Assembly (NCBI GenBank): GCA_034226945.1
Contig: CP120461.1
Location: 124,001-188,000 of the forward strand
Direction: 5' to 3'
Source of the DNA: Picochlorum sp. SENEW3
Taxonomy: Eukaryota
Length of the DNA stretch: 64,000 nt
Shown: positions 10,890-37,961 of the stretch, in pieces
Numbering within the stretch: the first letter of the stretch is position 1
How the letters are laid out: each line of letters opens with the position of its first letter
The notes under the pieces: generated by a model
Told to the model about the DNA's origin: nothing
Database searches by the model: none
Seen by the model: the letters and a program-made list of their open reading frames with translations, nothing else
Position numbers and translations under genes: made by a program

Positions 10890-12440
10890 ATGGCTGACAC
10901 ACAGAAGCAGGGAGACGGTGGTCCCTCTGAACACGACATGTTGCTGGATGCGGCTGCCGTCTTGGCTGAACAAACAGCTGCACCAGAGGAAGAGAAAAAA
11001 GAAGAGCATGAGATGTCTGTGGATGCTGTATGGATTGGTGACGGGGTTATCAAGGAGGAACAGTTTGGCAAGCACATGACGTGTTACAGGGGATTTGAGA
11101 GGAGGGATGTGGGCCAGGTCTTGGTGGGGGATTGCGTCTATTTGTTGCCTGCAGAACCTCATTTACCAAAGTTTATTGCTCAGATAAAAGATTTGTTTGA
11201 TGCCGAAGACGGGAAAAAGATGGCATCTTTCTATTGGTATTTCAGGCCAGAGGAGATTGAGATTGATGCCAAGTTGCCTATTTTTGATAAAGAAGTATTT
11301 GCTGGCGATGAGGTGGCCTCATATCCTTTGGATTTGATATGTGGTAGATGTGATATTTTGGACCCAAAAGCCTTCTTGGGAAAGAGGAAGAGGGGGATTG
11401 ATGCGTCCATGGACCATGTGTTTGTGTGTTCCAGGAAATATGTGCCAGAGGAGGGACGGGTGGTTCCTATCGAAGGAAAGGAAGATGCCGTCTCCGAATA
11501 TGACAGGCACCATATTCTTGTGAATAAGAAGATTGAAGAGAACCCAGCAGTTGCTGGGAAGAAGGTTGCCGGTAGTGACTCGAAGACTCCAAAGCGTGCA
11601 CCTCGACGCAAGAGAAAGGAACCCGAACAGTACTCTCCAGAAAGACCAGTCATCAAAACGACGCGAGGAAGAGTCGTGAACCCGCCAAGGACGTCCTTGT
11701 CGTACAGAAATTTGGATGACAATCAATTGGAAGTGCAGATGGAGGCGCAAAATAAGCCTCAGAAATCAAAGTATGGCCGATGGACAGAGGAGCGATATGA
11801 CGCAGCTCAGGCTTCCTTGGTGAAGATATTGAAAGCTCTTGGAGCGAACAATCCCCACAAAGCAATCTTACGCCCCCTTTTGCGAGAAGAAGCACGAAAA
11901 GCGATTGGTGACACTGGTTTGTTGGATCACCTGCTCAAGCATCTTGCCGATCAGGTTGTGTCACCTGTTGGTGAACGTTTGCGTCGCCGGCATAACAGAG
12001 AGGGTCACATGGAATACTGGTTGCAGGATCCACAAGATGCTGTCAAGGAGGAAAAGATGCTCCATGAAGAAATGACAGCATTGACAGCTGAGTTGAGAGA
12101 GATCAGAGAGGCACGGAATCTCATACAAACGGTTAGGAATGAGGCTGCAGATGCCATCCAAACCATGAAAGTGTTCACCAATAATGCAGATATGGCAGAG
12201 GCGCCAATGACCAGTCCTGTGGCAATGCCTGAGGAAATAAACCTGTCGTTGAGAAGAATGGCGGCAATGTTGGACCGCATTGTCTACGATTTTGGCATGC
12301 TGAGAAACAGGGTGGATTCCATGGCCATGGATCTTGCTCGTCATGAAGGAATGCAGCAAAATCTGGAAAAGTGGGCTACTGAGATGTCAGCACGACTAGA
12401 ATCAATCACACATCTCAACAACCACACACGGTATGTCTGA
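10890..12440 (+). CDS. BAH-domain plus DYAD/SWI1/AMEIOTIC1-like domain protein with C-terminal coiled coil
   Basis: BAH: VGDCVYL...FIAQIKDLF...WYFRPEE...EVF...ICGRC...FVCSRKY. DYAD: GRWTEERY...ILRPLLREEARKAIGDTGLLDHLLKH...RRRHNREGHMEYWL. First ATG follows an acceptor-like tgcag; the 3' end may have a further intron. Confidence 0.85.
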   Translation: MADTQKQGDGGPSEHDMLLDAAAVLAEQTAAPEEEKKEEHEMSVDAVWIGDGVIKEEQFGKHMTCYRGFERRDVGQVLVGDCVYLLPAEPHLPKFIAQIKDLFDAEDGKKMASFYWYFRPEEIEIDAKLPIFDKEVFAGDEVASYPLDLICGRCDILDPKAFLGKRKRGIDASMDHVFVCSRKYVPEEGRVVPIEGKEDAVSEYDRHHILVNKKIEENPAVAGKKVAGSDSKTPKRAPRRKRKEPEQYSPERPVIKTTRGRVVNPPRTSLSYRNLDDNQLEVQMEAQNKPQKSKYGRWTEERYDAAQASLVKILKALGANNPHKAILRPLLREEARKAIGDTGLLDHLLKHLADQVVSPVGERLRRRHNREGHMEYWLQDPQDAVKEEKMLHEEMTALTAELREIREARNLIQTVRNEAADAIQTMKVFTNNADMAEAPMTSPVAMPEEINLSLRRMAAMLDRIVYDFGMLRNRVDSMAMDLARHEGMQQNLEKWATEMSARLESITHLNNHTRYV

Positions 12441-12587
12441 AATGCATCACAATGACTTCTCATACAATGCTGCTGCTGATGTATGTTGAGACACAAATGT
12501 GCAGAGACACTACATCCCTGAGTAAGGAGAAAGAACAAGTACACGAGGACAATCACAGTGGAAAAATGGACCAACAAGCATAATCAA

Positions 12588-13206
12588 TCAAGTACGCTCA
12601 TGAATAATCAGCTCATCCAGCTTCCAGTCCTCGAAACTACTGTCAGGAAGATATCGCCTGATTATGAATGGAATTTTCTTCTCTCTAAGCTCTTTATATG
12701 CAATTTCTAACGGATCAGTCTCCCCTTCAACCTCCACCATGGGAGGTGCATTCATACTAAGCTGCAGTGCTCTGGTACCCAACACCCTAGCCTTCTCGTA
12801 CTTTGTCAAATATCGCGTGGTAATTCTCACTGCATTCCCTTGACCTTGTCCTTCTTCAGTTAATACGTCAACCTCCACACCTGTACATCACAACGTGACA
12901 AACTCGTCAGTCGCATACATGCACAATGCCCCAATCACGTGGAGCAATGCAACCCTAAAATGACATACCATCGGCAGCTGCAGCAGCGTCTACATCAATA
13001 TCATCTTCATCCATCTCATCCTCTCCCCATTGAGGATCTTTGACGGCCTCGTCTTCGAAATCATCTCCGTCAAACCTGCACGAGAGAAAATACACACCCA
13101 TCAGTTCTGTCATGGTTGCAAACCGATTCTTATACATAAAAATATCATAATTAATGGGTGAATGGAGGACGTACACATCGCCTCCTGCGTCTGCAAAATC
13201 TTCCAT
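12588..13206 (-). CDS. RPB6: RNA polymerase I/II/III common subunit RPB6 (3 exons)
   Basis: [28 protein letters not shown]...[11 protein letters not shown] signature; acidic N-terminal exons joined by GT-AG introns (intron 1 ~13077-13174). Confidence 0.95.
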
Positions 13207-14876
13207 GCTTCCTTCTCAGAAAGAGGCGTCTTGACTCTCCGGATGTTGCCGTATTATATTACCTACTATAATTATATATAAATTACTCGTGCTGGAGGAG
13301 GGTCAGGGGCTCAGTTTCTTGCCCAAGTCCATCATCAGAGCCATCCGGGTTTTCGTGTGGGCAGAACCCTGTGTGGGGAACAAAATGGCCTTCTGCAATC
13401 TCACGCTCGACCAATGCTCTCAGGTGATCCATATAACTAGCACCTTTTCTTTTGGCAAGAACAAATGTGTTTGCTGCCTTTGTTTTCACGTGTGGAACGT
13501 GGATGACGTATCCAAATGGATGGACATGGAAGGTGAACCCCTCGCCTCGAAGCTGATTGATGAACGCAATCTTATTCCCTCCATATCCAACGAATCTCTC
13601 ATCACACCAAGGCAAAACTTTTTTATTCAGCACCAAAAATGGTTCGTATTTGGGCTGATAGAATGCCCTGTACGTCATCGGAGCCTCCAACATAATCCAC
13701 TTGGATGTGTTGGTGGGACCATGGCCCCACGGAGCATCTTGGCCATTGAAGGCATCCACCTGGCCTGAGAGGTACTTTTCTCTCATGACACTCTTTCCAG
13801 CAATGGCCATGTTTCGAGCAAAATTCTGGCCCATGATGAGATCCTGATTTCTTTTGGTTATTTCAAACGCAGGAAGGACCAGGGCCTTTTTCTGGGATGT
13901 CAATTCTACCAATTGATTGTACACGGTTGGGTCTCTATATCCTGGGGCCTCCATACCCAGGCCTGCACAGGCAACAAAATCAACATCCAGCATGAATATC
14001 ACCTCTGTTTCTGCCAACTTGATTGCCCTATTTCTCAAGGCATTGATGGGGTATTCCTCTGGATCGAGTGGATCGAGAAATTGGCCCACGAGTTCAATGG
14101 TTAAAACACATGAAGCTGTCTTCTCCATAAAGTAGTGGAAGGCATCAATCCCACGAATGGCGTCGTCCAAGGTTGTGTTTGGGTATGTTGGTATTATGGT
14201 GGTATCCTCAGGACTCTTTTTGTACAGAGGAATGTACACGATGGCGACAAGGGGGTCGTTCCACGAGTAACACTGGTTTTCCAACATTTTCAATCGATCG
14301 TCAGAGAGCTGGGTCATCAGGGTAATGCTCTCCCTTGGCCTCGTTTTTTTACTTTTCCAGGTCTGCACAGAAACTAATCGAGGAACATCTTCATCATAAT
14401 AGCACGGAACGTCAGGTTTTGGACGAGGAGGGGAAAGATCCTGTTCCTCCTCCTCAACCACCGGCACCAGCTTCTCAGCAGACGTCTCCTCCTCTTCCTG
14501 CAGCAGCAGTCTGTGGGCGACGCCCTCCATTCCTTGACCATAGATCATCTGATCTATTTTATTTGTGCTATAAGCACCATTCAGGCCCTGCAGACGGACA
14601 TGTTCGTGAGAATTCGTGTCAAGTTGGCCTGGGGAGTGCACGAGTCGGTTGTCGTCAGAACAAACGCTGCTCAACATACCACGCAGAGACTCAAAACGAT
14701 GCAAAGAAATACTCTTTTCATCATTTTAATATCGTATTGACACTATATTTGCATAATGGGGCCTTTATCTATCAATCACGGACGAAGCGATCTGCACTCG
14801 TCCTCTACTGTCTGTTAGCACCTTAAGACTGCGGCATTACCCATCTAGCATCATTCCGTTTCTATTTTTTATTTTA
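13091..14876. repeat. Tandem duplication unit, copy 1 (~1.78 kb)
   Basis: Near-identical to 15790-17574 at an offset of 2699 bp. Confidence 0.97.
13283..14724 (-). CDS. GT49 / LARGE-like glycosyltransferase, copy 1 (intron 14588-14679)
   Basis: ITLMTQLSDDRL, YPINALRNRA, LDVDF (DxD), ALVLPAFE, YEPFLV, DERFVGYGGNK and HVPH motifs. Exon 1 MMKRVFLCIVLSLCV is a signal/anchor joined by GTG|gtatgt...ctgcag|GGC. Confidence 0.88.
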
Positions 14877-14893
14877 AATAAATAACAGCAGAA

Positions 14894-15789
14894 CTAGTAC
14901 TTTTTGCCCGTGGCTACGCCACTTGCCGAATCTCAATGGTGCCATTTCGCGCCATTGCGCTCAATATTAATATTGAGCCATTAATGGTGCCGAAATTTTC
15001 GGCCCGAAAACCTGGACTCAAGTCAAGTTTGCAATTCATTGGCACTCAGATTGATCAATCATGAGGCATTCATGACCAAAGTCCGATGATCGGAAAGCAT
15101 TTATGTGGCTCCATGGTTCTACAATATAGATGGAATTTAGACACCGTTTGTGGAGTTTGAAGTCAAAAATCACCGTATGGCTCTGTGTGGGTCATCTCCC
15201 CAAGGCTGGTCTGGTCAACATCACTGTCAGACCTCTGTCAACCGCGATCTATTCGAGCATGTGTAGATACAATGGCTCCTCATAGCTCTTTCTTCTCTTT
15301 TGGAGCCTTACAGAGTCTATGAGGTCAATTGCAAAATTTGAAATTGGCCGACTGGGGAGCCATGGCCATGGCTGGATCCAGTCCACGGCCATCAACGATG
15401 GTCCATGATCGAGTTTGGTCCCAAAAGCCCGTCAATCGACTCGTTTTGACGAGCTCTATCGCATGGTGGCCTCGAAAAGTGCAAATTCTTCACGAGTGAG
15501 GAGATTGACGGCAGTATATTTTTCTGGGCACACCCTCGCGAAATCCATTCGCTCGGGCAGGGCTTTTGATAGTGGCATATTTCCGGATTTTTAATGCCAA
15601 ATTCAGTCTCACCATATTTCGCTCGTCAAATATGCCGCGTAATATGCCATTTCGTACTAAATATACCATCAAAATATGTCATATCCTGATGAAATATGCG
15701 AAGTTTGGCCATGTATACGCTGGCTGTAGATGGTACTACAGCATTTCAGCAGTCAAACTTTGAAAGAAATCAGACTGCAAAGGCATCGA
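14894..15789 (-). mobile_element. Probable non-autonomous Helitron (~896 bp)
   Basis: Minus strand begins A^TCGATG at 15789 and ends GTGGC-GTA-GCCAC hairpin, GGGCAAAAAGTA, CTAG^T at 14894. No TIRs, no short TSD, no long ORF. Confidence 0.7.
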
Positions 15790-15905
15790 TACACACCCAT
15801 CAGTTCTGTCATGGTTGCAAACCGATTCTTATACATAAAAATATCATAATTAATGGGTGAATGGAGGACGTACACATCGCCTCCTGCGTCTGCAAAATCT
15901 TCCAT
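15790..15905 (-). pseudogene. RPB6: Duplicated RPB6 fragment (exon 1 and most of intron 1)
   Basis: Identical to 13091-13206 but cut off by the insert before the native splice acceptor. Confidence 0.85.
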
Positions 15906-15981
15906 GCTTCCTTCTCAGAAAGAGGCGTCTTGACTCTCCGGATGTTGCCGTATTATATTACCTACTATAATTATATATAAA

Positions 15982-17423
15982 TTACTCGTGCTGGAGGAGG
16001 GTCAGGGGCTCAGTTTCTTGCCCAAGTCCATCATCAGAGCCATCCGGGTTTTCATGTGGGCAGAACCCTGTGTGGGGAACAAAATGGCCTTCTGCAATCT
16101 CACGCTCGACCAATGCTCTCAGGTGATCCATATAACTAGCACCTTTTCTTTTGGCAAGAACAAATGTGTTTGCTGCCTTTGTTTTCACGTGTGGAACGTG
16201 GATGACGTATCCAAATGGATGGACATGGAAGGTGAACCCCTCGCCTCGAAGCTGATTGATGAACGCAATCTTATTCCCTCCATATCCAACGAATCTCTCA
16301 TCGCACCAAGGCAACACTTTTTTATTCAGCACCAAATATGGTTCGTATTTGGGCTGATAGAATGCCCTGTACGTCATCGGAGCCTCCAACATAATCCACT
16401 TGGATGTGTTGGTGGGACCATGGCCCCATGGAGCATCTTGGCCACTGAAGGCATCCACCTGGCCTGAGAGGTACTTTTCTCTCATGACACTCTTTCCAGC
16501 AATGGCCATGTTTCGAGCAAAATTCTGGCCCATGATGAGATCCTGATTTCTTTTGGTTATTTCAAACGCAGGAAGGACCAGGGCCTTTTTCTGGGATGTC
16601 AATTCTACCAATTGATTGTACACGGTTGGGTCTCTATATCCTGGGGCCTCCATACCCAGGCCTGCACAGGCAACAAAATCAACATCCAGCATGAATATCA
16701 CCTCTGTTTCTGCCAACTTGATTGCCCTATTTCTCAAGGCATTGATGGGGTATTCCTCTGGATCGAGTGGATCGAGAAATTGGCCCACGAGTTCAATGGT
16801 TAAAACACATGAAGCTGTCTTCTCCATAAAGTAGTGGAAGGCATCAATCCCACGAATGGCGTCGTCCAAGGTTGTGTTTGGGTATGTTGGTATTATGGTG
16901 GTATCCTCAGGACTCTTTTTGTACAGAGGAATGTACACGATGGCGACAAGGGGGTCGTTCCACGAGTAACACTGGTTTTCCAACATTTTCAATCGATCGT
17001 CAGAGAGCTGGGTCATCAGGGTAATGCTCTCCCTTGGCCTCGTTTTTTTACTTTTCCAGGTCTGCACAGAAACTAATCGAGGAACATCTTCATCATAATA
17101 GCACGGAACGTCAGGTTTTGGACGAGGAGGGGAAAGATCCTGTTCCTCCTCCTCAACCACCGGCACCAGCTTCTCAGCAGACGTCTCCTCCTCTTCCTGC
17201 AGCAGCAGTCTGTGGGCGACGCCCTCCATTCCTTGACCATAGATCATCTGATCTATTTTATTTGTGCTATAAGCACCATTCAGGCCCTGCATACGGACAT
17301 GTACGTGAGAATTCGTGTCGGGTTGGCCTGGGCAGTGCACGAGTCAGTTGTCGTCAGAACAAACGCTGCTCAACGTACCACGCAGAGACTCAAAACGATG
17401 CAAAGAAATACTCTTTTCATCAT
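15982..17423 (-). CDS. GT49 / LARGE-like glycosyltransferase, copy 2
   Basis: Same exon structure with intact donor (gtacgt) and acceptor (atgcag). Two visible amino-acid changes versus copy 1: AFNG to AFSG and EPFL to EPYL. Confidence 0.88.
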
Positions 17424-17716
17424 TTAAATTTTGTATTGATACTATATATGTGCATAATTGGGCCTTTATCTATCAATGACGGACGAAGCGATCTGCGCTC
17501 GTCCTCTACTGTCTGTTAGCACCTTAAGACTGCGGCATTACCCATCTAGCATCATTCCGTTTCTATTTATTTTACTTGATGCCACGAAAAATGGCAAAAG
17601 GATTAATTGATTGTGTCGGATTGGCGCCAAGCTGGCAGACTGACGTCATACACACTTGTATACTTGATGATGATTATCATGATAAGAGATTGATAAAAAT
17701 GAATTAACGACGTTAT

Positions 17717-33084: not shown

Positions 33085-34911
33085 TTAGTATCCAATTCTG
33101 CCATGTTCAAGGGCACATGCCTGGCCGTTCAGTGTGACTGCGTTTGGAGATGCGTTGCTGAGATTTGGGCCTTCGATGATGATTCCTATGTTTACTTCGG
33201 AGCCTGGTGCTATAGATAGCCATGATTCTGTGCCTTTTCCACGGATTGTTCCGGTATTTGTCAGTGATGGTTCCCAATTCCATGCTGAGAGAATTGCTGT
33301 GATGGGGTCTCCAGAGATTTCCAGATCCCAGCCACTCTTGATGGTGTCTGAGCCAGTGTTTGTGACAAAGACATTGTATACGCGGGCTGACGCTGTGGCT
33401 GTGGGCCAAATACCTGATTTTTCAATTCTGACAGAGCACGCTGCTGATGGATCTGTTGGAGGCAGGGGTGGAGGAGGTGGCGATGGTACTGTAGGTGGAG
33501 GAGGAGGTGGTGGCGATGGCACTGTAGGCGGAGGTGGAGGAGGTGGCACTGGCGATGGATCCGTTGGTGGTACTGGCAATGGTTCTGGTACAGGTGATGC
33601 CTTGTCATCTGACCTTGTGTACCATGGCTCTAATCCGAGATTGTTCTCAAGGTATTGCATCTTCCTCCACTCCAAATCGATCCAGTTATCTGTCACAAGA
33701 CCCCCTGTGTCTCCAGAGTTGGCATTCCAGCTCCAATAGAACCAGTTGGGAATGGCAACATGCCTACCATCCTTGGCTGGACCCTCATTGTTCAAGTAAT
33801 CTGCAAAGTCATTCATGAATGTAATATCATCTTCCATTTCAAACTTTGACCCAAATTCTCCGATAGCGATAGGGAAGATGATGCAGTCTCCATTGCTGTT
33901 GCAGTATCCTGGCTCTTGCGTCTTGGTGCCAAATGATGTGCTCAAGCGATAGAACAAGCCATCCCCTGTTGCATTGTTTGTGTTGAATGTCACGGACGAA
34001 GGATACACGTGGGGGCTTAACATTACTCTGTTTTTGTATGGCTTTGTCATGAAGCTATTGAAGAATGGCCTGGGATCGCCGAGTCCCAATTCTTCAATCC
34101 TTTCAGTGGCAAATCCATCTCCCCAGTTTGCAAACAACAGCCCTTGCTGAGTTCCTTCAACAGCATACATGACATTTGCTCCTGTGGCTTCAATTTGGTC
34201 CATAGCAAGCAAGTATAAATCGGTCATTTTGTCCCATGACACTCCATAATTGTCGGGCTCATTGAGGATGTCGACAATCAGCTTGCTCTCGACTTCTTTG
34301 TCGGCTGTCAGATCCTTGATCAAGTCAGCATATTTGGATGCCCATGCATCTACGTCCTCAAGAGCGGTCTGATCTTCTCGTAAATGATTATCAATCATCA
34401 CATAGAATCCATTCTTGGCATAAAATTCAACCACATACATGAAACGATCCCTGACCGAGTTCTTTGGGAGGTACCCATTGCATGTGTTGCCTGCGTAGGC
34501 TGACTTTGGTGGAGGATTCTCAAGTGCAGGAGGAGCTCCGAGGTTCTTGGTTCCCAAAGGCGCCACACTCTCAGCCAATACTTTATCGGTAGGGATGATG
34601 CAGTTCTGGCGTTCAAAATCACGGGGAGTCAGATCGAAATCCTTAAAGCTGAATGGCAGCCTCACAGCATTGAATCCCAAGAGCTTTTGCCTCCTGACCA
34701 CTGTGGCAAAATCTCCTGAGAGGGCATTATTACTCCACAGACCATCCAACATGGTCTGCCCATTATTGAAACCGAACCAGTTGAATCCTTTCAACGTGAC
34801 TTTGTTCCCTGATGAGTCTATTATTTTTGATCCTGAAGCCTTCAAGCCAGCAGCAAGGGGGCTTGTCACCATGACAACCAGCAACACGATTGCCGGCAGC
34901 GTGAGCTTCAT
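33085..34911 (-). CDS. Secreted GH5 endo-glucanase with Pro-rich linker and C-terminal CBM2/CBM49-like module
   Basis: Signal peptide; GFNWFGF, NAVRLPF, NEP (acid/base), SPHVYP, IGEFG (nucleophile), WSWNANSGDTGG; C-terminal Cys-bounded Trp-rich module. Confidence 0.9.
   Translation of the reverse strand: MKLTLPAIVLLVVMVTSPLAAGLKASGSKIIDSSGNKVTLKGFNWFGFNNGQTMLDGLWSNNALSGDFATVVRRQKLLGFNAVRLPFSFKDFDLTPRDFERQNCIIPTDKVLAESVAPLGTKNLGAPPALENPPPKSAYAGNTCNGYLPKNSVRDRFMYVVEFYAKNGFYVMIDNHLREDQTALEDVDAWASKYADLIKDLTADKEVESKLIVDILNEPDNYGVSWDKMTDLYLLAMDQIEATGANVMYAVEGTQQGLLFANWGDGFATERIEELGLGDPRPFFNSFMTKPYKNRVMLSPHVYPSSVTFNTNNATGDGLFYRLSTSFGTKTQEPGYCNSNGDCIIFPIAIGEFGSKFEMEDDITFMNDFADYLNNEGPAKDGRHVAIPNWFYWSWNANSGDTGGLVTDNWIDLEWRKMQYLENNLGLEPWYTRSDDKASPVPEPLPVPPTDPSPVPPPPPPPTVPSPPPPPPPTVPSPPPPPLPPTDPSAACSVRIEKSGIWPTATASARVYNVFVTNTGSDTIKSGWDLEISGDPITAILSAWNWEPSLTNTGTIRGKGTESWLSIAPGSEVNIGIIIEGPNLSNASPNAVTLNGQACALEHGRIGY
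33450..33595 (-). repeat. Coding low-complexity repeat (PPPPPPPTVPS)n in the GH5 linker
   Basis: GGA/GGT triplet runs on the plus strand. Confidence 0.85.
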
Positions 34912-35647
34912 CGCTGATAAATTTATTCAAGTATTGATTATTATTTGCTTCTGCATATCATTAGGAGGAAATAGCCCGTGAGTAAGGGGGGTGTTGATCA
35001 AGTGCAGCTGAGGTCAGAAGGGTTACTGGTGCCAAACTTGAAGAACCTTGCCGCTCTCGTGAGGGAGTTTCTATAATGTTTGGATTCACCAATCGTACCT
35101 TGAACAATGAAATATTACTATGAAAGGTGCGGCGTATGGACTGTAGGTATCACTTTCTCAAAATAGGCCCACACAAGCTGCATTCATCCATTCACTGGTT
35201 CACGTGACGATGACGTCTCAGGCGGCTACTTTCTGAATGGCGGCAGGGGTTTTCTGCTTTGATAACGGCCAAAGAATATACCATCTATAAATTTACAATT
35301 TGTTTCGGAGCATGAACATGTATATATGCGCGATCGAACTGCATTGTCCGCTCGAACTCTTGTGACTCGAACTGACGGTCAACGTTGACTGCGCAGTCAC
35401 TACTGGTCAGACAACGCGTTTGATCAAAATCACTCCAATGGCCACATGGGCTGGTCTACGTTTGACACTTGTTGGTAGATTCTGGTTACATGAGAATGTA
35501 GGGTAAAAGAATGTGCATAGTATACAAAATCCTGCTGCAACAAGGTACTGTATCAGTCAAATATACAAAATCCTGCTGCTCTTAAAAAGCAGGATACAAA
35601 CGCCCTAATTCGAAGTCCATGGAGAGGAAACTCCAACCAAGTGCGGG

Positions 35648-37402
35648 TTAGGCGAGTGTGCAAGCGACACCATTGAGTGTTGCCGAGTTTGGTTTGAGAC
35701 TCTGTGTTGGGCCACTGACAAGGAACCCCACATTGACCTCGCTGTTTGGGCGGATAGTCAGCCAACTGAGGGATCCAGTTCCGGTGAGAATATTATTGTT
35801 CAAAATAATATCCCAATTCCATGCCTGAAGTACATTTGAATAGGATGGGCCGCTCAATTGTAAGGTCCAAGGCGTTTGAATTTGGTTTCCAGAGAGATTC
35901 TTAATGAACAGGTTGAAGGATCCAGTATAACCTGCTCCATCTTGCCATATGTTTCCGATGTCAATTCTCACGGAGCATTCTGTATCGCCAGTCACGGGAA
36001 GAGATGGAGATGGAGTGGGTGATGGTGGCAATGGTGATGGTGATGGTGATGGTGATGGTGTTGATGGAGATGGAGATGGAGATTGAGTAGGAGATGGTGG
36101 CAATGGATTTGAAGGGCCTGTATCTCTACTGCTCCAGGGCTCAAGACCAATGGTTGTCAAGTAATCGATCTTATTCCATTGAATTGATACCCAACTGTCG
36201 TCTACAAGACCTCCTGTATCACCGGAGTTGGCATTCCAGCTCCAATAAAACCAATTGTCGATGGGATTGTGCCTTCCATCGTCAGCAGACCCTCGATTGT
36301 TCAAATATCTCGCAAAGTCCTTCATTGAAGTGAGATCAATCTGCTGAGCAAACTTGGAACCGAATTCTCCAATGGCGACAGGAAACTTTTGGCACTTGGA
36401 TCCATCACAATATCCCTGTGTCATTTTTGTGCCAAAAGATGTGCTCAATCGGTCGTACAAGGCATCTCCAGTCACAGCATTATAGTTGTATGTGACGGAG
36501 GGAGGATACACATGTGGACTCAAAATGACTCGATTTTTGTATGGTTTTGACAGGAGAGAATTGAAAAATTGCCTCGGATCACTCAATCCTAAACTCTCAA
36601 TTCGTTCAGTAGCAAATCCATCTCCCCAGTTTACTTGGAGCCCAGACTGGCCTGTGCCCTCAATAGCAAAAATTGTCCCAGGCGACTTTGCTTCAATTGC
36701 ATCCATTGCTGTGAGATACATGTCACCCAGCCGAGACCATTGGAGACCATAATTATCTGGCTCATTCAAAAGATCAACGATCAGTTTGTCTTTCAAATTC
36801 GAGTCTTTTGACAGATCTCTGACGAGGTCAGCCCACTTTTGACTCCAACCAGTGACATCCTCCAGAGCTGTCTGATCTTCCCTCAGGTGATTATCGACCA
36901 TGACATAAAATCCATTCTTCGCAAAGAATTTCGCAACCCAAATGAATCTGTCTCGAGTACTTGTATTTGGAAGGTATCCATTGCAGACATTACGAGAGTA
37001 GTTCGGTGGGCTGGGCAGGTCTGGGGCAGCACCTGGACTGGAACTCCCTGGAGGAGTCACGCTCTCAGCAACTGCTTGATCAGATGGTGGAGAGCAATTC
37101 TGAATTACAAATGACCTCGGATTTTTGTCCAAGTCTTTGAAACTGAATGGTAATCGAACTCCATTGAATCCCAAGAGCTTTTGTCTCCTCACAACCGTGG
37201 CAAAATCACCTGATAATGGATCATTACTCCACAAACCATCCACCATGGTTTGGCCGTTATTGAATCCAAACCAGTTGAATCCCTTGATCTTCACCACATT
37301 CCCATTCGTATCTACAATATTGGACCCTTCGAGTTTGACCGCGAAAGAAAATTCCGAAATGTATCCCAGAAGGAGGAATCCCAAAATGATGGAGCGCCTC
37401 AT
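35648..37402 (-). CDS. Second GH5 endo-glucanase paralog with (SP)n linker and CBM-like module
   Basis: Same motif set as 33085-34911; clearly paralogous but well diverged. Confidence 0.9.
   Translation of the reverse strand: MRRSIILGFLLLGYISEFSFAVKLEGSNIVDTNGNVVKIKGFNWFGFNNGQTMVDGLWSNDPLSGDFATVVRRQKLLGFNGVRLPFSFKDLDKNPRSFVIQNCSPPSDQAVAESVTPPGSSSPGAAPDLPSPPNYSRNVCNGYLPNTSTRDRFIWVAKFFAKNGFYVMVDNHLREDQTALEDVTGWSQKWADLVRDLSKDSNLKDKLIVDLLNEPDNYGLQWSRLGDMYLTAMDAIEAKSPGTIFAIEGTGQSGLQVNWGDGFATERIESLGLSDPRQFFNSLLSKPYKNRVILSPHVYPPSVTYNYNAVTGDALYDRLSTSFGTKMTQGYCDGSKCQKFPVAIGEFGSKFAQQIDLTSMKDFARYLNNRGSADDGRHNPIDNWFYWSWNANSGDTGGLVDDSWVSIQWNKIDYLTTIGLEPWSSRDTGPSNPLPPSPTQSPSPSPSTPSPSPSPSPLPPSPTPSPSLPVTGDTECSVRIDIGNIWQDGAGYTGSFNLFIKNLSGNQIQTPWTLQLSGPSYSNVLQAWNWDIILNNNILTGTGSLSWLTIRPNSEVNVGFLVSGPTQSLKPNSATLNGVACTLA
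36001..36105 (-). repeat. Coding hexamer repeat (GATGGA/GATGGT)n encoding a Ser-Pro linker
   Basis: Visible tandem hexamers. Confidence 0.85.
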
Positions 37403-37961
37403 GAGGATATAGCTTCTCTGATAGCTTCCCGTTGACGCGTGCTGCTCTGGCGTTTAAATATTTCTATGAATCACAAAGTACAGAGCCATTCAAACTTGTG
37501 TAATGATTACATGAATTCCAATATACGACTGCCAAAGGCCTTGCCCACTGACGGCATTGGACACGAGTCTACGGTGAAGTCAAAGACGTACCTCGTTCGC
37601 GTGTGTCGAATACGCCGTATTCTAGTTCAAAAGATCCAAACTTGTCCAAAGACGTATTCTTTTCAAAAATCAAGGCAATTTAGGAGATTTATTAAATGAA
37701 TTCGTATGGACGCATGCCCAGAACTTGTCATGTGACCATAGTCCATACATACATCCGCGGTCCTCCGCGGCTCCACAGATGGCGATTGCAGACGGATGCA
37801 CCAGCATGCCATGTCCAAAAAGGTGATGGATGGCTCCATTTTCCAAGAGCAACAATACACAGTCTGTCTCGCACAAGAGGTTAAAAATAAGTTCTACCAA
37901 CCTGCGCAGAATCTATTGAATCCTTGTATTCGCACGCATTGCGTTCTCGATTTCCTAATGA

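Follow-up and report, generated by a model that had tools for sequence, protein, structure and literature searches.

How did a glycosyltransferase gene of the green alga Picochlorum sp. SENEW3 come to stand in two nearly identical tandem copies with part of a Helitron, a rolling-circle transposon, between them, and did the Helitron cause the duplication? The locus lies at 13091-17574 of the window, the whole 64,000-nucleotide stretch analysed here (contig CP120461.1; G000:C9:124001-188000). The host genome, G000, has 13.85 Mb in 14 contigs (C-numbers), and L-numbers denote loci extracted from G000 or from relatives (L046, L047). The original prediction held that the duplication was recent, that rolling-circle transposition or its repair had produced it, and that it had restored an essential gene, RPB6, hit by the element. 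We find it very probable that the duplication of the glycosyltransferase family 49 (GT49) gene is real, old and homogenized by conversion, with the Helitron nested in the repeat of a miniature inverted-repeat transposable element (MITE). The Helitron was probably a later passenger, not the cause.

Self-alignment confirmed that positions 13091-14876 are repeated at 15790-17574 with an offset of 2699 and 98.65% identity over 1783 bp. The copies differ by 21 substitutions and two indels, one of 2 bp and one a 3-bp difference in a T run. The left edges of the repeat lie at 13090/1 and 15789/90, giving a unit of about 1.79 kb and a spacer of 912-913 bp. A genome-wide match search found exactly two copies of the unit in G000, plus a distant third GT49-like paralogue at G000:C11:87419-88012 (L020; 64% nucleotide identity). 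Contig sets of four of the 24 listed sequencing runs (X1, X2, X4 and X11; X17-X24, with small shares, were left out) were compared over window positions 11800-15825. All run data are contigs, no single one of which spans the whole stretch, and X1 and X2 possibly represent the source sample. One X1 contig covered the left junction (14838-14921) and a second the right junction (15453-15818), both without differences. The second has 29-30 letters on the unit side, just below the 31-letter rule, and shares its terminal 30-mer with the flank contig (13119), which is what two entries into one repeat should give. X1 depth was 61.5 in the flank, 107.7 in the collapsed unit, 56.8 and 56.7 in the copy-specific bubbles and 60-66 in the insert, depth not being a strict copy number. 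Junction contigs were present in X1, X2, X11 and partly X4, the contig graph branches at 13090/15789, and the insert contigs had single-copy depth in X1 and X11. The tandem duplication is real and not a mis-assembly. That two alleles were set in tandem by haplotype mis-assembly is hardly conceivable: the inter-copy difference of about 1.3% does look allelic and no single contig spans the stretch, but the junction contigs, the graph branching and the depths of X1 and X11, which fit two copies per flank copy, speak against it. A joint in X2 (13038-13426) was rejected as evidence of splicing; both of its ends are GATC, where X2 contigs break, as in what appears to be a proximity-ligation library.

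The spacer had been described as a unique 912-bp insert. Its length stands (912-913 bp), but it is not unique: G000 contains 17 matches, which fall into separate blocks, and 16 of these lie elsewhere than at this locus. Only one of the 17 is full-length, and no dispersed copy with the same two ends was found in G000. The insert is a nest of four transposon pieces (Table 1). The remnant of a terminal inverted repeat (TIR) at 14883-14893 matched a Tourist-like MITE at 11/11 letters in L011 and at 10/10 in L013, L014 and L016 (a sister Tourist-like family), against a background of 52 of 126102 window 10-mers. The Helitron portion is identical at 73/73 letters, and then at 69%, to an intact RepHel element from G000:C4:449894 on. 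It shares with this element the CTAG end at 14894, a CTRR-type terminus, and loose ends of X4 contigs at 14893 show other flanks. The hairpin has a 5-bp GC stem and lies 16 nt from the Helitron end, and the 35-bp palindromic segment is missing from the C4 element. Three short palindromes, none of them in the C4 element, lie at 14959-14999, where this genome is 6 bp longer than X4 and X11. The X11 contig departs from the window sequence at 15110, and 26 of its first 30 loose letters match, by eye, the continuation of the C4 Helitron, indicating that the Helitron part was formerly longer. X11 contigs have no cover at 15558-15687, a gap that was not counted as evidence.

The two MITE pieces that follow also have full-length relatives in the genome. 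Target-site duplication (TSD) length follows superfamily rules: PIF/Harbinger (Tourist-like) elements make 3-bp TSDs of the TWA type, and hAT elements make 8-bp TSDs. The family A fragment is 91-93% identical to four full copies with 32-bp TIRs and 3-bp TSDs (TCA, TAA, TTA and TTA), and its divergence from them (5.9-7.7%) compares with 4.6-6.8% among the full copies themselves. The hAT-type piece is 81% identical to L008 (27-bp TIRs, 8-bp TSD); a CAGGG-type TIR and an 8-bp TSD were found in both full hAT-type copies (L008 and a relative within L011). At 15557/15558 the hAT-type repeat starts exactly where the TIR of the Tourist-like MITE itself would start. No autonomous Harbinger partner could be linked to the Tourist-like MITEs, as the only DDE_Tnp_4 locus in G000, on C8, has no matching TIRs within 10 kb. 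The window had been called otherwise free of transposons, and in a limited test this held: no match to the repeat loci compared, or to four element-locus open reading frames, was found outside the insert.

The letters originally quoted for both junctions are correct, as is the Helitron 3' end at 14894. At the right junction, AT is common to the hAT-type MITE interior and the RPB6 intron. The supposed TC 5' end at 15789 sits 226-233 bp inside the hAT-type MITE and is a break in this MITE with 2-bp microhomology. No sibling copy with this 5' end was found in G000, and the sequence there shows no likeness to the region upstream of the C4 open reading frame. A single element with its 5' end at 15789 is therefore not what the insert represents; boundaries of other copies proved unrelated to 15789, but not to 14894. 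At the left junction, the 11 letters after CTAG are a Tourist-like TIR starting at the T of its A^T. The A^T sites of the two sides thus differ: the Helitron 3' side fits the one in the MITE repeat and the 5' side the one in the RPB6 intron. Because the base after CTAG belongs to a MITE TIR with an A^T of its own, the Helitron target, taken at face value, would be that A^T and not the RPB6 intron, in a normal insertion into a MITE. With its CTRR-type 3' end, its subterminal hairpin and a RepHel partner in the genome, the insert does hold a Helitron piece, and the predicted association of this piece with a tandem gene duplication is real; Helitron causation, by contrast, is weakened by the other target and the missing 5' end.

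The unit itself ends in TTA, the target of the Tourist-like family, and TTA or TAA occurs at 5.6% of positions in the same intergenic region. The other six filler letters may be a fold-back. That the filler is a degenerate remnant of the RPB6 target flank was rejected, since 32% of 3000 sampled A^T sites score equally well, and so was its origin as a transduced donor flank, for which G000 has no donor (three other 2-mismatch matches versus nine for the control; a 14-nt match at L055 is unrelated to any repeat locus compared). A tandem Helitron concatemer with later excision was also rejected, as there is no scar at 17574.

The ancestral state and the age of the duplication were assessed from relatives and other strains. 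Both related loci found among 33 candidate stretches have a single GT49 gene, and one of them, L046, with 85% identity at the nucleotide level, is collinear with the window across the two outer junctions, including 17574. These comparisons show that a single GT49 copy is ancestral. The outer ends have no flanking repeats, and an origin by non-allelic homologous recombination was rejected because the outer boundaries lack homologous repeats and are both collinear with the outgroup L046. X11, from another study, has 44 differences over 1637 bp of the unit, and its contigs bridge the left junction, with 33 letters inside the unit, and extend to 15818 on the right, with depths of 197.6, 329.5 and 196. 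X4, also from another study, has the left junction and continues for 10 letters after the right junction. The duplication is neither recent, as had been proposed, nor private, and is older than the separation of at least two other sampled lineages.

Its apparent youth is consistent with gene conversion. From left to right, the copies differ at 0/192 positions in the RPB6 part, 6/1305 in exon 2, 7/92 in the intron, 0/45 in the next segment, 8/72 in the proximal upstream region and 0/80 in the distal upstream region. The longest identical run is 846 bp (P=4e-5 under an even spread). The unconverted intron and promoter parts differ by 7.6-11% between copies, versus 1.3% overall; divergence from L046 is 13% in the intron and 23% upstream. 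At 13 unit sites, among 40 of the 135 difference rows listed, X4 and X11 agree against both window copies, these strain alleles being collapsed contigs in which the per-copy letters of each strain are not separable. L046 sides with X4 and X11 at nine of the 13 and with the window at four, so that nine letters are derived in both window copies. Since other strains have the duplication too, derived letters common to both window copies demand conversion as their explanation. It is thus well supported by these patterns that gene conversion between the copies wiped out most of their divergence. Because conversion hides the age of the duplication, the 7.6-11% in the unconverted parts is a better guide than the 1.3%. 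Gene conversion between tandem duplicates is textbook concerted evolution, which the present locus resembles in its patchy divergence and in the derived letters of both copies, with no difference of kind.

Table 1. Features of the duplicated locus and its insert (window coordinates)
Feature	Position	Strand	Remarks
RPB6, complete gene	12588..13206	-	143 aa; exons 13206-13175, 13075-12969, 12880-12588; PF01192; model from splice consensus and L046
Duplicated unit, copy 1	13091..14876		RPB6 5' part, GT49 and 152 bp upstream of GT49 ATG; left junction native
GT49, copy 1	13283..14724	-	449 aa; exon 1 14724-14680, intron 14679-14588, exon 2 14587-13283; ancestral N296 and F332 kept
Junction filler, 6 nt	14877..14882		With next 2 nt, 8-nt inverted copy of unit end (weak, P=0.07)
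Tourist-like MITE TIR remnant, 11 nt	14883..14893	-	Begins at T of A^T site in that TIR
Helitron 3' portion	14894..15112	-	CTAG end at 14894; hairpin 14910-14922; 35-bp palindromic segment 14965-14999
Tourist-like MITE family A, interior	15113..15557		About positions 142-580 of 613; both TIRs missing; 1-bp microhomology at 15113
hAT-type MITE end	15558..15789		CAGGG TIR and about 230 bp of 575; broken in interior; 2-bp microhomology AT to unit
Duplicated unit, copy 2	15790..17574		Right junction native, collinear with outgroup L046
Orphan RPB6 exon 1 and truncated intron 1	15790..15905	-	Continues into MITE fragment
GT49, copy 2	15982..17423	-	449 aa; N296S and F332Y at conserved positions; in-frame TGA 17344-17346 intronic

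Taking these results together, the reading that we prefer, with a probability of roughly 0.4, is that a non-homologous tandem duplication came first and that transposons nested in it later. In an ancestor of several of the strains sampled, non-homologous joining, either end joining or a backward switch of template, would have added a second copy of the 1.79-kb segment in head-to-tail order. The new junction, beside a useless RPB6 stub, would then have been one of few harmless landing sites in a compact genome. A Tourist-like MITE may have landed there first, followed by a canonical insertion of a Helitron of the C4 family at A^T inside the TIR of that MITE, of which the 3' side is seen. Another Tourist-like MITE and the hAT-type MITE would next have nested in or beside the Helitron. 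Deletions with 0-2 bp of microhomology could have trimmed the nest to 0.9 kb, one of them, at 15113, setting this genome and X4 apart from X11. Meanwhile, gene conversion would have removed most of the divergence between copies while both GT49 frames stayed open. We infer the order of these events; the parts, their sharing among strains and the patchy divergence were observed directly.

Several findings support this reading. No donor of the insert mosaic or of the filler was found in G000. The Helitron end is identical to the intact element over all 73 letters, for which a hand estimate gives P of about 0.04-0.11 against the 8-11% divergence of the paralogues, and this fits an end younger than the paralogue divergence. 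Elsewhere in the genome, a hAT-type MITE with an 8-bp TSD lies inside a Tourist-like one at L011, a 3.7-kb nest occurs at L068, and at L065 one copy of a duplicate carries a truncated MITE at TTA while the corresponding site of the second copy is empty. Nesting and truncation are thus common in G000, which favours duplication first. Other findings weigh against it. Four insertions and at least two outer deletions are needed before the strains split, the strain alleles rest on 40 of 135 listed rows of collapsed contigs, and the divergence of the outgroup amounts to 15%. The TIR match, found post hoc, spans no more than 11 nt, and a 14-nt match exists at the unrelated L055 site, where it is not preceded by A. 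The left break and the Helitron end are no more than 11-17 nt apart, a closeness that suggests some connection with the Helitron hairpin. Finally, A^TC at an A^T site is indeed one reading of the right junction, and by chance only 5% of joins with 2-bp microhomology, or 0.8% of all joins of the two sequences, would give this pattern.

Among the alternatives, a single repair or replication event might have copied a piece of an existing nest from elsewhere, running from the unit end through a fold-back into the MITE repeat and out of the hAT-type MITE to the unit start. It would account for both junctions at once, neither of which is a transposon terminus, and it agrees with the 2-bp microhomology on the right and with the overlap of 2 nt between the left fold-back and the MITE repeat. 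In the accessible parts of the cited sources, to which all our statements from the literature refer, filler and microhomology are common at copy-number variation breakpoints (PMC4056370) and template switching near DNA transposons is described (PMC8277862). We regard such an event as rather unlikely, since G000 holds no donor, the depth of the insert contigs is that of single-copy DNA in both X1 and X11, support for the fold-back is weak (P=0.07) and the Helitron end looks younger than the duplication. The TTA at the unit end and the orientation of the TIR remnant, with its body toward that TTA, raise another option: a Tourist-like (PIF/Harbinger) MITE at the right end of the unit could have duplicated it by alternative transposition of the hybrid-element type, with later nesting and deletion of the ends. 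TTA is the family target (3-bp TSDs in 4/4 full copies), and cut-and-paste elements can yield tandem duplications with an element between the copies (PMC3744419). However, no MITE terminus or TSD is left at either breakpoint, and the C8 locus described above provides no transposase source with matching TIRs, which makes this origin unlikely.

The Helitron as the cause, close to what was originally proposed, appears quite unlikely to us. RepHel would have moved a composite from a cryptic internal TC past CTAG, its 5' end joining at the RPB6-intron A^T and its 3' end 1.79 kb upstream to give a giant target duplication. The true Helitron 3' end, the intact partner in the genome and the A^TC pattern of the right junction (chance 0.8-5%) are in line with this, bypass of the 3' end has been shown for Helraiser (PMC4778049), and rolling-circle elements lie at Drosophila duplicate breakpoints, where the accessible text leaves the mechanism unresolved (PMC4067079). 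Three unusual steps would be required, however, and the available parts of two papers state that the left terminal sequence is essential for Helraiser and that Helitrons make no target duplication (PMC4778049, PMC5876387). The TC lies inside the hAT-type MITE, has no sibling and is unlike the region upstream of the C4 open reading frame, while the 3' flank is accounted for by the MITE TIR as another target. In its full form, in which Helitron transposase acting from the cryptic TC joined ends 1.79 kb apart on sister chromatids and left a gene-sized TSD kept as two functional GT49 genes under conversion, the proposal is very unlikely. A literature search, with most subscription papers outside its reach, found no description of a kilobase target duplication made by RepHel or of this locus.

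Both GT49 copies and one RPB6 are intact. The gene order is a BAH-domain gene (+), RPB6 (-), GT49 (-), the insert, the RPB6 stub and second GT49 (-), and alanyl-tRNA synthetase (-). Each GT49 copy has a 45-nt exon 1 encoding a hydrophobic N-terminus, a 92-nt GT-AG intron and a long exon 2, as in L046. PF13896 was detected in both at 111.7 and 110 bits (Pfam cut-off 27), and the DxD motif is present, its first D being kept in 43/43 aligned homologues (the best 43 of 110). In agreement with the original prediction, both copies are intact open frames and are predicted to be functional. Copy 2 was rejected as a pseudogene because its TGA falls in the intron of a gene model common to L046. The six codon differences between copies comprise four silent changes plus N296S and F332Y, both in copy 2; among the same best 43 of 110 homologues, 40 have N at 296 and 37 have F at 332. 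Two replacements are too few to tell relaxed selection from a new role. Named homologues include a Nannochloris protein (57%) and a Picsp-labelled protein (56%); these and the short introns suggest a small trebouxiophyte green alga. The genes resemble CAZy GT49 and Pfam PF13896 members in the domain above cut-off, the DxD motif and the hydrophobic N-terminus, and differ as an algal subgroup of putative glycosyltransferases; the family is LARGE- and B4GAT1-like. The more distant relative has, between its GT49 and RPB6 genes, a small open frame (L047:7260-8484) that encodes a hydrophobic stretch and a tail rich in Q, G and Y; neither the window nor L046 contains it.

The RPB6 gene of the window, as predicted, is the only complete match in G000 by genome search and spliced translation (143 aa). 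The left breakpoint lies within its intron 1, 15 nt ahead of the intron 3' end, and of RPB6, copy 2 therefore retains exon 1 and a truncated intron alone. A break of RPB6 itself was never demonstrated, and any surviving outcome would have kept an intact copy. Intact RPB6 is best read as a filter on surviving outcomes and not as a rescue. Only 76 bp (13207-13282) separate the GT49 stop from the RPB6 start, and RPB6 control signals therefore probably overlap the GT49 3' end and were duplicated along with GT49. The RPB6 stub may be transcribed into the insert.

The C4 RepHel element (G000:C4:449894-455570; L033:2395-8071, minus strand) has an 1818-aa open frame with PF14214 (Helitron_like_N), PF05970 (PIF1) and PF21530 (Pif1 2B) and with HMH and YLYKY motifs, and is possibly still active. 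Its 5' end was not located, the upstream region being single-copy in G000, and a 705-aa open frame starts just past its 3' end. G000 has 10 Helitron_like_N matches as well as several MITE families. Two 7.5-kb Helitron-type elements, L035:2280-9780 on C4 and L039:1586-9085 on C10, are 99.9% identical, a sign of very recent movement, and L036, L037 and L038 form another Helitron-type family (93-97%).

Other repeats were noticed nearby and elsewhere. About 20-24 kb before the locus on C9, L065:2627-7392 contains a 1.9-kb tandem repeat (94.6%), whose spacer holds a truncated Tourist-like MITE at TTA, with an empty site after the second copy and retrotransposon-like remnants nearby; six frames of L065 gave no Pfam match, nor did nine open reading frames of neighbouring repeat regions. 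L066:3262-5166 has an 820-bp direct repeat (99.1%) that ends about 100 bp from a full Tourist-like MITE. At L068:3383-7522 a family A MITE is stretched to 3.7 kb by several insertions and adjoined by 329-bp inverted repeats. An older tandem pair of GH5 cellulase plus CBM2 genes (68% nucleotide identity) lies at window positions 33088-37453.

The locus illustrates that high identity of tandem copies can mean conversion and not youth, and that a transposon end found at a breakpoint is not necessarily what caused it. This algal genome of 13.85 Mb contains an intact, possibly active RepHel Helitron together with nested MITE islands. Such an element in a haploid-like alga makes a Helitron integration assay conceivable. 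Should the duplication be Helitron-made after all, it would show that rolling-circle integration can lead directly to the duplication of a whole gene, a route that the papers on DINE-1-associated duplicates leave open.

All events considered here are of known kinds, and the accessible parts of the literature hold a precedent for each ingredient (PMC8277862, PMC5876387, PMC4778049, PMC4067079, PMC13286980, PMC13342296, PMC4056370, PMC3744419, PMC4224331). The insert resembles canonical Helitrons (Helitron1; Helraiser and wheat Xuan-Feng) in its CTAG end, subterminal hairpin, T after the end, AT-rich 3' flank and RepHel partner with HUH and PIF1 domains (PMC4778049, PMC13286980). In contrast to them, only about 220 bp of the 3' part is left, no 5' end can be demonstrated, the insert is not repeated as a whole and the target is a MITE repeat. 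Alternative transposition (Ac/Ds reversed ends and P-element hybrid element insertion) likewise gives tandem direct duplications with element DNA between the copies only (PMC3744419), whereas no element terminus or TSD is found at either breakpoint here. A further parallel is offered by DINE-1/HINE in Drosophila and FoHeli1 in Fusarium: a functional gene duplicate or a deletion has a rolling-circle element at its breakpoint or close by, and the sources, as far as accessible, leave the cause unresolved (PMC4067079, PMC13342296). Unlike these cases, the present locus is from a green alga and has a canonical Helitron end that is nested in MITEs and for which evidence at the level of single bases indicates another target.

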